A stretch of 64,000 nucleotides of DNA from a virus. Positions 40,251-54,391 of this stretch are shown here, one piece after another (the stretch's first letter is position 1; each line of letters begins with the position of its first letter). The stretch spans positions 98,691 through 162,690 of the IMG/VR virus record IMGVR_UViG_3300025816_000006. One strand, 5' to 3'. The translations under genes were made by a program, and so were the position numbers. Below the pieces are notes generated by a model. It had not been told where the DNA came from and made no database searches. It was given only the letters and a program-made list of their open reading frames with translations.

Positions 40251-40325
40251 TGAGTGACGGGATTTGCACCCGCGAATCTAGTCTTGTCGATCTGTCTAAT
40301 CGCTCTAGGCTTCCGACTTCACTCA
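40251..40325 (-). ncRNA. tRNA-like element lacking a canonical D/anticodon arm
   Basis: TGAGTGA/TCACTCA closing stem; T-arm GCGGG-TGCAAAT-CCCGT. Confidence 0.5.
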
Positions 40326-40344
40326 TTTGTGCTACGATATAGTA

Positions 40345-40582
40345 AAGCCCCGTTTGGATAATAAGGACGAGGCGACTCCCCAGACAGCTTACGCTGCCAA
40401 TGCGAGACTTTCATCTGCAATTAAAAGGTTGATAGATTTTTAACGTAGCCCTTCTATCAACTACGGCATGAGATACATTACGTCATATTGTATGTCGAAT
40501 CTAAGTCATCCCCGTAAGTGGAGATGGAGGGAATTGCACCCTCGTCCATGACAACATCAATAATAATCTTTATACATGCTTG
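40345..40582 (-). ncRNA. ssrA: circularly permuted two-piece tmRNA; tag (A)ADESLALAA
   Basis: Acceptor piece (...GGACGAGGGTGCAATTCCCTCCATCTCCA, ends 40519) precedes GGGGATGACTTAGATTCGAC (starts 40513); G3-U70 pair; tag ORF 40418-40389; outer ends approximate. Confidence 0.9.
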
Positions 40583-40957
40583 TTAAAATGGCCCATCGTC
40601 TGCGCTATCATGAAATCTTGTGATAGCTTTCTCTAACGCTCCCTTAAACTTACCTGTAACAACATAAGAAAAACTACCGTCTGCTTCCACCATCTGCTCT
40701 AGCATCCCTTGGTGAAACATCATAAACAATTCTTCGCCAACATATTGCATGGCGACTTCTTTCATTTTTAGTATTGATGGCTTATCGTTCATTTCAAATT
40801 TCATTATGTTAAAGGAAACGCTTTCTGATTCTGGTCTTATATTCTCCACTTTATTCAAGTGGGACTTTGCTTTTCTCATAGTATCATACACGCCAAGTGG
40901 CTCAGAAACAACTCTTTCAGGCGTACTAATCAACATTTCTAATAAATATACTGTCAT
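40583..40957 (-). CDS. hypothetical protein
   Basis: ORF with RBS; ends DDGPF. Confidence 0.55.
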   Translation of the reverse strand: MTVYLLEMLISTPERVVSEPLGVYDTMRKAKSHLNKVENIRPESESVSFNIMKFEMNDKPSILKMKEVAMQYVGEELFMMFHQGMLEQMVEADGSFSYVVTGKFKGALEKAITRFHDSADDGPF

Positions 40958-52551: not shown

Positions 52552-52675
52552 TCTCCTGTGGTTGGTAAATAAATAAGAGGTGGGAATCCAACTTCATCGG
52601 GTTATGGTTTGGACGACACCCTGATCGCGCCTCACCCACACTCTCATTCTAATATAGTTATCGGAACTGTCAATA

Positions 52676-53464
52676 CTAATCTTCAATTAAATATGGGAAT
52701 AATGTTGGCATAAAGTCTTGTAAAACACTATCTGGTACTTCGCTTTTTAATAGTTTACCGTTAGCTTTACTTGTGCCAATATATTCTTTTTTTATTCTAT
52801 CAACTAAAGTTGGTTTTAAAAGTTTACCAGTAATTTCGCATTGTTCAACATCTAAATTCTGACTCTTAATAATTGTAAGGATCACTTCTGCAAATTGTTG
52901 TTCTTTGACCTTTTTAAAAGAATTTATGGTATGGTGCTTTTTTTGACTTCTGAAAAAAGCTAAAATCTCATCCAATTTCCCGCAATCTTCTGCCGTTCTT
53001 AACATAGTAATACAACCAAGTTTAATGTCTTGTGTTGCAGATTCCATCAATGAAAATCCACCATGATGAACCTTTCCTACAATCGACATCGCTGTTCGAT
53101 CTCCATGACAGAACTCAGCCATTATTAAAGCATTGTTATTTAATCCAGATCGCTCTTTATTAAGCTGTACAAATAGTTTTGCTTCTTCTTGAACCGGATC
53201 GGGGACTGATGTGAAGTCATACAGCGCTATTCTTACGAGCTTGTTTTTCATTTGTGCTGCGCTTTTCCTGTGCTGACCTTCAAATACCGATTTGGTTCCG
53301 TCTGCTCTGTGTGATACCTGTAAGACACCAGCCATAACATCGTTAAAATTTTTAGCTATTTTTCTAACTTTAGCTTTTGACACTTTTCTTTGGTAGCTTG
53401 TATCTACAGTTAAAGTATTTGGATCAACCCCGTCAATCAACTTGCACTTCAAATTATTTAACAC
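52676..53464 (-). CDS. ParB/Srx-like domain protein
   Basis: LTVDTSYQR, VFEGQHR, EAKLFVQLN. Confidence 0.7.
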   Translation of the reverse strand: MLNNLKCKLIDGVDPNTLTVDTSYQRKVSKAKVRKIAKNFNDVMAGVLQVSHRADGTKSVFEGQHRKSAAQMKNKLVRIALYDFTSVPDPVQEEAKLFVQLNKERSGLNNNALIMAEFCHGDRTAMSIVGKVHHGGFSLMESATQDIKLGCITMLRTAEDCGKLDEILAFFRSQKKHHTINSFKKVKEQQFAEVILTIIKSQNLDVEQCEITGKLLKPTLVDRIKKEYIGTSKANGKLLKSEVPDSVLQDFMPTLFPYLIED

Positions 53465-53698
53465 TTCAAAATTCTCCTGTGGTTAGTAATAAGTAACACT
53501 CTTATTATAATACTGTTATCGGAACTGTCAAGTAATTACTTTACCAATTTCTTAAAATATTCCACATGATTAAGATGTTACAGATTATTGCCTGTAAAAC
53601 TATAATGGTTCTAATCAAAGCGATTGTATCCGCTTCTTTGTTATCACCGATCTTTTCGCCAAGGGCTTTTGCCCATAATTTCCAAAACTTTTTCATAG

Positions 53699-53772
<74 letters not shown>

Positions 53773-53776
53773 GTAA

Positions 53777-53979
53777 AGGGCGCAAACAGTACAAACGTAA
53801 ACACTGGTCTGCTGACAGACAAACCTTTCCTGATTCCCGCTTCCAAGCGATACAGCGAACCCAAGACTCAGGGAGGATCACTTACAGCCTCCCGTCTTAT
53901 CTCAGTAATGACTAGCCCTGTCAAGCCGGTCATCGTTATTACGCAAAGTTACGTTCAATTACTCCTGTTTACAAACCCT
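53777..53979 (-). ncRNA. unidentified structured RNA (about 200 nt) between two tRNAs
   Basis: Long closing helix plus four internal hairpins. Confidence 0.6.
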
Positions 53980-53982
53980 AAG

Positions 53983-54056
53983 TAGACTCGGAGTGACTTG
54001 AACACTCGACCTGCCGATTATGAGTCGGATGCTCTAACCAACTGAGCTACGAGTCC
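53983..54056 (-). tRNA. tRNA with CAU anticodon, probably Ile2
   Basis: CCGA-CTCATAA-TCGG anticodon arm resembling Ile2; elongator Met not excluded. Confidence 0.85.
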
Positions 54057-54061
54057 GTAAG

Positions 54062-54132
54062 TAGTGCAGGTAGGAGTTGAACCTACGGAGGCGAGTATAT
54101 AAGACTCGCGTGGATAACCGATCCTCCGCACC
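54062..54132 (-). tRNA. atypical tRNA-Ile(UAU)
   Basis: 71 nt, reduced D-arm, 6-bp stem GCGAGT-CTTATAT-ACTCGC, normal T-arm. Confidence 0.75.
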
Positions 54133-54187
54133 ATGTTGTCCCTATTATAACATCGGGACTTCGTATGTCAAACTTTAATCAAAAAGT

Positions 54188-54391
54188 TTAGCAGCATCGT
54201 CGAACACGATTTAGCAATCGTTGAAGTGGTCGCATTGCACGAACACGGCAGACTGTCGATCTTACAGGTTGAGCAGAGACAACTCTCGAAACAACCGTTC
54301 GCACTGGCGTACATCCACTGGTACACTCGCCAGCATCAGCAGAACCAGCCATCAAAGCACAACTCAAAACCGCAGCAGCAACAAATTTCAT
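54188..54391 (-). CDS. small secreted Cys/Arg-rich peptide
   Basis: Signal peptide ending ADA, repeated PVR motifs, own promoter. Confidence 0.7.
   Translation of the reverse strand: MKFVAAAVLSCALMAGSADAGECTSGCTPVRTVVSRVVSAQPVRSTVCRVRAMRPLQRLLNRVRRCC

Follow-up and report, generated by a model that had tools for sequence, protein, structure and literature searches.

A previously undescribed family of structured RNA very probably occupies the whole 209-nt gap between the genes for tRNA-CAU and tRNA-Arg(UCU) in a tRNA operon of a marine phage. The window, i.e., the whole stretch of 64,000 nt that was analysed, covers the final 64 kb of an IMG/VR virus record of 162,690 bp, a phage of ~163 kb with an estimated completeness of 98%. 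Among its genes are those for a split DnaE-type polymerase, a DnaB helicase, a class II ribonucleotide reductase and UvdE. Since no sequence among 50,697 phage records shares more than about 31% identity with the polymerase, the phage belongs to an uncultured lineage; the sequencing runs and contigs carrying the locus are marine. The operon comprises the following features:

54144–54171, minus strand: operon promoter of the sigma70 type (TTGACA, 16 nt, TG-TATAAT; 12/12 matches), kept in relative L002
54061–54132, minus strand: tRNA-Ile(UAU), first gene of the operon (ARAGORN/Rfam), followed by 4 nt
53982–54056, minus strand: tRNA-CAU, Met or Ile2 (ARAGORN and Rfam)
53773–53981, minus strand: structured RNA element, form A
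53698–53772, minus strand: tRNA-Arg(UCU) (ARAGORN and Rfam)
53541–53696, minus strand: 51-aa ORF of the WAKALGEK family, last in the operon, starting 2 nt after tRNA-Arg

The earlier note, made from the letters of this DNA, had described an RNA filling almost exactly the gap between both tRNAs, and the borders predicted by ARAGORN and Rfam agree with it, giving 209 nt on the minus strand (53773–53981). The promoter, the three tRNAs and the element are on one strand, separated by gaps of 0–4 nt, and the element is thus probably co-transcribed with the tRNAs from the sigma70-type promoter. As read from the sequence, none of the three operon tRNAs encodes CCA. The 51-aa ORF shows an invariant WAKALGEK motif and a hydrophobic tail and belongs to a very large protein family of uncultured phages, with more than 500 confirmed matches in IMG/VR distributed in 109 protein clusters, adjoining tRNA genes at some loci.

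Relative L002 was reached in IMG/VR through a neighbouring HATPase gene, and further relatives were found in a metagenome scan that used the 51-aa ORF as a handle and returned 80 loci. Homologs of the element were present in 10 of these 80 loci, in all cases in the slot between tRNA-CAU and tRNA-Arg. The resulting 11 copies fall into two forms. Form A, of 207–210 nt, comprises the window copy and those of L087, L097 and L088, which are 93–98% identical to it; form B, of 163–166 nt, comprises L085, L086, L098, L090, L093, L094 and L091, with L085 being a mosaic that carries the terminal stem of form A around an interior of form B. The CAU-Arg site is empty in five loci (L002, L089, L092, L100, L118); in L002 the promoter and the tRNAs are the same and only 3 nt separate tRNA-CAU from tRNA-Arg. 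Across the phage records and the IMG/VR and GTDB loci searched, the 11 copies are confined to one clade, that of the closest relatives. Both forms share near-invariant ends and joining strands, and the segments between these differ. The conserved parts are GUUGUAAACAGGAGUAAUUGAAC on the 5′ side, AAUAACG, UCGCUGUAUC and GGGAAUYAGRAAA internally, and UUUACGUUUGUACUG on the 3′ side. About 55 joining-strand positions are near-invariant across two forms whose helices have diverged, a pattern indicating purifying selection on a folded core.

The element has a minimum-free-energy fold of -66.2 kcal/mol, with folding-energy z-scores against dinucleotide shuffles of -1.79 for the window copy, -1.94 for its opposite strand and -1.66 for form B. 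As these z-scores are unremarkable, the case for a structure rests on the homologs and not on thermodynamics. Form B and a structure derived by hand served to build a covariance model, with which we aligned all 11 copies. In this alignment 94.8% of the cells form standard pairs, vs 35–53% when partners are slid by 1–3 columns, and 11 pairs are changed on both sides, although the pair counts are inflated because the alignment was fitted to our own model. The covariation score, based on about seven distinct sequences from two clades, was 0.309 vs 0.142 in shuffles, and none of 500 shuffles reached 0.309. The search for homologs and covariation proposed in the earlier note thus yielded ten homologs with compensatory changes, in agreement with its description of a multibranched structured RNA on the minus strand. 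The parts of the element, from its 5′ end, are:

53965–53978, minus strand: 5′ strand of P1, GGGUUUGUAAACAG, pairing with 53778–53789
53959–53964, minus strand: J1/2, GAGUAA, invariant; its GUAA may pair with UUAC of J5/1
53939–53958, minus strand: P2, local hairpin with invariant UUGAAC (helix 3, with four pairs changed on both sides)
53934–53940, minus strand: J2/3, AAUAACG, conserved; its CG is paired to that of UCGCUG
53908–53933, minus strand: P3, hairpin with loop UUGACAGG, which carries the candidate kiss partner UGACAG (53918–53923)
53863–53898, minus strand: P3a, hairpin AAGAC-GGGAGG...CCUCCC-GUCUU, in form A only, with a compensatory change in L088
53850–53858, minus strand: J3/4, UCGCUGUAU, conserved
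53838–53849, minus strand: P4, hairpin CGCU-UGGA-AGCG (helix 5, with two pairs changed on both sides between forms)
53826–53837, minus strand: J4/5, purine-rich GGAAUCAGGAAA, conserved
53806–53825, minus strand: P5, hairpin GGUUUGU-CUGUCA-GCAGACC (helix 6), whose whole loop (53813–53818) is the other candidate kiss partner
53790–53805, minus strand: J5/1, AGUGUUUACGUUUGUA, with the invariant stretch UUUACGUUUGUA
53778–53789, minus strand: 3′ strand of P1, CUGUUUGCGCCC, then UUUAC, the leader of tRNA-Arg

P1 is a 12-bp terminal stem that joins the ends of the element; its variation is confined to the 3′ strand, several copies have a mismatch, A.C or U.U, and it is followed by a short U run, of six U in L087. 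The possible 4-bp extension GUAA/UUAC (helix 2) is paired in all copies and never varies. Changes preserving pairing also occur within forms: U-A to C-G in P2 of L093 (form B) and in P5 of L085, and G-C to A-U in L088, both in P3 (GGC/GCU to GAC/GUU) and in P3a. In form A, P3 is a small three-way junction bearing the extra hairpin P3a.

Most of the helices originally proposed from the window alone were found in its sequence and minimum-free-energy fold and are borne out by the homologs. This applies to the pairing of the ends (GGG..GUAAACAG with CUGUUUGC..CCC), to the hairpin AUGACCGGC/GCUAGUCAU, to AAGAC-GGGAGG/CCUCCC-GUCUU, where GGGAGG/CCUCCC becomes GGAAGG/CCUUCC in L088, and to the hairpin CGCU/AGCG, replaced by CUGU/AUGG in form B. 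The helix GAACGUAA/UUACGUUU is complete in form A, but form B keeps only its outer part, GAAC/GUUU, which is invariant in all copies. The hairpin GUCUG/CAGAC had to be revised, because it is broken in L097, whose swapped U-A and U-G pairs favour the register GGUUUGU/GCAGACC for P5.

In both forms the loops of P3 and P5 are complementary and may thus form a loop-loop kiss. In form A, the 8-nt loop of P3 contains UGACAG and the entire 6-nt loop of P5 is CUGUCA, allowing six out of six Watson-Crick pairs, a complementarity equalled by 0.3% of composition-preserving loop shuffles. The loops of form B (CGGCUAGG/UUUAGUCG), unrelated in sequence to those of form A, could form 8 bp including three G-U pairs, which is matched by 9% of shuffles, and those of L085 (GACUAA/UUAGUC) six Watson-Crick pairs (1.9% of shuffles); in the form B copies other than L085 the kiss is by itself not significant. 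The persistence of complementarity between the same two loops despite a complete change of sequence is the strongest individual indication of a defined tertiary fold, being strong for form A and suggestive for form B.

No known family accounts for the element. The comparison with Rfam suggested in the earlier note (Rfam 15, 4227 models, searched at gathering score and at E ≤ 10) gave no match inside 53773–53981 at gathering scores, nor at E ≤ 10 with either 651 nt of sequence or the 215-nt element alone, and the form A and form B copies from relatives had none at E ≤ 0.1. Models of 6S RNA, a long imperfect hairpin with a central bubble resembling an open promoter, did not match the element, whose fold is multibranched; of the likeness to 6S RNA that had been noticed, therefore, the length stands and nothing else does. 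Searches for tRNA, tRNA-like, tmRNA and YrlA sequences (ARAGORN and the RF00005, tmRNA and YrlA models, E ≤ 10) found nothing within the element, and the weak YrlA rows of the Rfam search overlap the flanking tRNAs. Likewise, the window element did not match manA (RF01745; at least 55.2 bits; motifs GUGaCUGAA and UGuGGGUA..UCCcaC) at E ≤ 10. With no Rfam family and with homologs showing compensatory changes, calling it a new class, as the earlier note did with caution, is fair. Hammerhead-like CUGA motifs of form A were considered and rejected: they are located in the part missing from form B, and no ribozyme model matches.

Blastn searches with the element plus its flanks, and with form B, against the 50,697 phage records returned matches to tRNAs only, or none. 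No small-protein frame was conserved across the homologs; form A contains a single long open frame, on the antisense strand, and in form B no frame exceeds 39 codons. Because the antisense frame is shifted by one-base indels between copies and is missing from form B, the element is non-coding. Searches for further copies were equally negative: in IMG/VR, no relatives were found through the neighbouring DUF6551 protein, scans with an exact 27-mer, a 5′-motif pattern and a core-motif pattern gave nothing or chance matches in coding DNA, and a tRNA-Ile(UAU) pattern retrieved the L002 contig only. In GTDB species genomes, a pattern scan produced 120 chance matches, none of them confirmed by profile. 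The rest of the genome of the window contains no second copy, and covariance model R1 detected nothing in 81 loci of more distant relatives in IMG/VR and nothing outside the 11 copies in the 80 metagenome loci.

The stretch or part of it is contained in 20 sequencing runs from eight studies, ten of which are on record as RNA. Four runs were examined, all as assembled contigs, and element-bearing RNA-library contigs with 0–2 differences were found in three runs from three studies (X7, 53737–54029; X4, 53727–54035; X11, 53831–54207); one RNA run also holds a form-B-like allele, so that both allele types are present in it. The contigs break inside the tRNAs, i.e., at assembly repeats. These contigs, which give no ends, strand or level, show presence in RNA libraries and nothing more: since the depth of the element is similar to that of its flanks and one contig extends upstream past the promoter, DNA carry-over or read-through are possible sources. 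Contigs of two RNA-library runs also connect position 52637 to 53496, indicating that 858 nt with the DUF6551 gene (52676–53464) are absent in some strains.

We consider it probable, with some reservation, that the element is an accessory structured RNA, a passenger of the tRNA operon that is released by tRNA processing and acts in trans. It would be transcribed together with tRNA-Ile(UAU), tRNA-CAU and tRNA-Arg(UCU) from the sigma70-type promoter. RNase P cleavage at the 5′ end of tRNA-Arg would then set its 3′ end, and 3′ processing of tRNA-CAU, for which the lack of an encoded CCA points to the RNase Z type, would set its 5′ end, both cuts freeing an RNA of ~205 nt. Release as a discrete RNA, already anticipated in the earlier note, is proposed because the element is flush against two tRNAs, and we hold excision from the operon transcript with moderate confidence. 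P1 would clamp and protect the two RNA ends, four hairpins (five in form A) would radiate from a junction with almost invariant joining strands, and the kiss between P3 and P5 would lock this junction. The RNA might thus bind a partner during infection, although we would name any specific partner with low confidence. A trans-acting binder is favoured because an invariant junction with covarying outer helices resembles the cores of RNAs that bind ligands or proteins. The element is dispensable, since there are sibling phages without it, and this dispensability fits an accessory role and a selfish role equally well.

A cis-acting function, either tuning the order or yield of processing of the flanking tRNAs or acting as a riboswitch or attenuator of read-through into tRNA-Arg and the 51-aa ORF, is unlikely in our judgement. 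The element does share a transcription unit with tRNA-Arg and the 51-aa ORF and immediately precedes them, and the neighbouring slot of relatives contains manA, which Rfam files as cis-regulatory. Additionally, GAAC has two alternative partners, one local in P2 and the other the invariant GUUU of J5/1, making a conformational switch possible, and a short U run (six in L087) follows P1. An architecture of junction plus kiss is also typical of riboswitch aptamers: the lysine riboswitch contains a five-way junction and the purine riboswitch an L2-L3 kiss, and, like them, the element combines a closing stem, P1, with joining strands that are conserved, hairpins that vary and a candidate kiss locking the junction. 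Unlike these aptamers, however, it is located between tRNAs, its kiss would link non-adjacent hairpins, and it lacks a covariance-model match and a regulated gene. A riboswitch also pairs its aptamer with an expression platform upstream of the regulated gene, but neither a terminator-like hairpin nor another expression platform was detected within or downstream of the element, and P1 is a long-range stem rather than a terminator hairpin. Moreover, siblings with flanks 92–97% identical have tRNA-CAU and tRNA-Arg 3 nt apart and no element, and, as they keep the same downstream genes, the tRNA and the ORF need no such control.

The distribution of the two forms and of empty sites does not follow the relationships of the flanking DNA. 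The downstream flank of the window (tRNA-Arg plus ORF), which carries form A, is 96% identical to that of L086 (form B), 93% to that of L089 (empty) and 92% to that of L002 (empty), and the flank of L088 (form A) is 97% identical to that of L089. These near-identical flanks with A, B or no element indicate that the type of cargo is independent of flank relationship.

The slot between tRNA-Ile and tRNA-CAU, of only 4 nt in the window, carries diverse sequences in relatives. In L097, positions 1953–2133 of this slot contain a manA RNA (RF01745; 59.1 bits vs a gathering score of 55.2), giving the order tRNA-Ile, manA, tRNA-CAU, form A and tRNA-Arg, with a tRNA on each side of manA and no downstream mRNA. 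Matches to manA below the gathering score occupy the same slot in L100 (2161–2338; 53.4 bits), L089 (1576–1764) and L002 (5171–5359), the last two with about 30 bits; in L002 the slot holds a different folded RNA, of 199 nt, with a weak match to manA. The slot of L087 (1094–1283) contains three tandem units of ~62 nt, CUGUCACC..CUGAG..CUCAG..GGUGGCAG, each folding as a hairpin of 8 bp plus 5 bp that contains internal loops, and without matches in Rfam at E ≤ 0.1, and that of two phages with form B a 60-nt extended hairpin (L090, 2129–2188; L093, 98–157). Free-standing ORFs for HNH endonucleases were also present, antisense, within the operon: one in L087 (1603–2133, minus strand; PF13391, E 1.5e-10), and another in L094 (220–612, minus strand) with the motif CANCHREHH only and no Pfam match. 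The 3′ ends of these ORFs overlap the genes for tRNA-Arg or tRNA-CAU. The varied RNAs of the Ile-CAU slot, together with the HNH genes in the operon, indicate that the slots behave as exchangeable cassettes. Homing endonucleases occur in tRNA regions of the T4 type and, by analogy, the HNH endonucleases might plausibly be the motor of cassette exchange.

These data also bear on the possibility, which we regard as rather improbable, that the element is a selfish or hitch-hiking cassette spread by recombination of the operon, possibly through gene conversion by homing endonucleases, and whose fold would serve its own persistence. The discordance between cargo and flank tree (the window vs L086, at 96%; L088 vs L089, at 97%), the mosaic structure of L085, the antisense HNH ORFs of L087 (PF13391) and L094 (motif only) and the coexistence of both allele types in one RNA run would all fit such a cassette. 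Nevertheless, the window copy has no terminal inverted or direct repeats, target duplication or associated enzyme, the conservation of about 55 joining-strand positions indicates purifying selection on the folded core, and mobility is compatible with a function that serves the phage. Finally, an ordinary spacer or decayed tRNA genes with chance hairpins, as the modest folding z-scores (only -1.7 to -1.8, and -1.94 for the opposite strand) and the narrow distribution could suggest, is highly improbable, because searches at E ≤ 10 gave no tRNA-like match inside the element, the helices persist in ten homologs despite two-sided changes, slid partners pair in only 35–53% of cells, and the loops of P3 and P5 are complementary in both forms.

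Returning to an accessory RNA that acts in trans, a broader and quite doubtful extension is that phage tRNA operons have defined cargo slots, in which unrelated folded RNAs such as the element, manA and the tandem hairpins would be swapped by recombination promoted by homing endonucleases and processed into trans-acting binders, for example decoys or sponges of a host defence or translation factor. If so, manA would be a stand-alone RNA and not a riboswitch, and exchangeable trans-acting RNAs would constitute an overlooked layer of phage accessory functions. In a narrower variant, the element may dock to the anticodon loops of the tRNAs of its own operon. J2/3 (53934–53940) carries AUA, the codon read by tRNA-Ile(UAU) and, if it is Ile2, by tRNA-CAU, and J4/5 (53826–53837) carries AGG (AGA in form B and L088), these being codons of tRNA-Arg(UCU); the UUAGAA of form B is the complement of six bases in the anticodon loop of tRNA-Arg. 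By our rough count, codon-like triplets would match by chance with a probability of about 0.1.

That phages make other RNAs along with their tRNAs has been known since T4 and T5. RNAC and RNAD (species 1 and 2 stable RNAs) are encoded in the tRNA cluster of T4 and, as is the case for the tRNA-like stable RNAs of T5, mature together with tRNAs. The element is likewise a non-tRNA RNA among phage tRNA genes and, if co-transcribed as proposed, is encoded within a phage tRNA transcription unit; its nearest kind is therefore the non-tRNA stable RNAs of phage tRNA clusters. It differs from them in having no sequence similarity (blastn against the 50,697 phage records matched flanking tRNAs only), in consisting of a multi-helix junction with a putative loop kiss, in existing in two exchangeable forms and in being absent from siblings. 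RNAC and RNAD have been described as “RNAs of yet unknown functions” (PMC9697503).

The RNA manA (RF01745) is associated with marine phages and catalogued as a cis-regulator of 5′-UTRs and riboswitch candidate (Weinberg et al. 2010; PMC2864571). It has about 190 nt, is, like the element, multibranched with a closing stem and, in relatives, is found in the neighbouring slot of this operon; its helices, however, are in a different order, and no conserved motifs are held in common. The closing stems also differ, GGAAGG/CCUUCC in manA-like cargo vs GGUUGUAAACAG/CUGUUU.. in the element, so that there is no common clamp. The location of manA between two tRNAs in L097 questions its label as a 5′-UTR regulator. 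The element also resembles GOLLD, which is associated with tRNAs and prophages (PMC5737381), and ROOL, in being an ornate phage- or prophage-associated RNA with complementary loops, which in GOLLD and ROOL make tertiary or quaternary contacts (10.1101/2024.12.08.627333); these RNAs are three to four times larger, and no Rfam model matches at the element. By comparison, the locus offers a compact and comparatively well-defined passenger RNA, with a conserved core, a candidate kiss and two allelic forms, for which natural “empty” controls exist in otherwise near-identical phages.

Two other features of the window were observed. Immediately upstream of the operon promoter, positions 54188–54391 (minus strand) contain a 67-aa Cys-rich ORF with an N-terminus resembling a signal peptide, conserved in L002 and without a Pfam match. 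Elsewhere, at 40298–40612 (minus strand), there is a permuted, two-piece tmRNA gene (RF04321, 89.4 bits) that encodes the tag ADESLALAA and adjoins tRNA-Glu(UUC).
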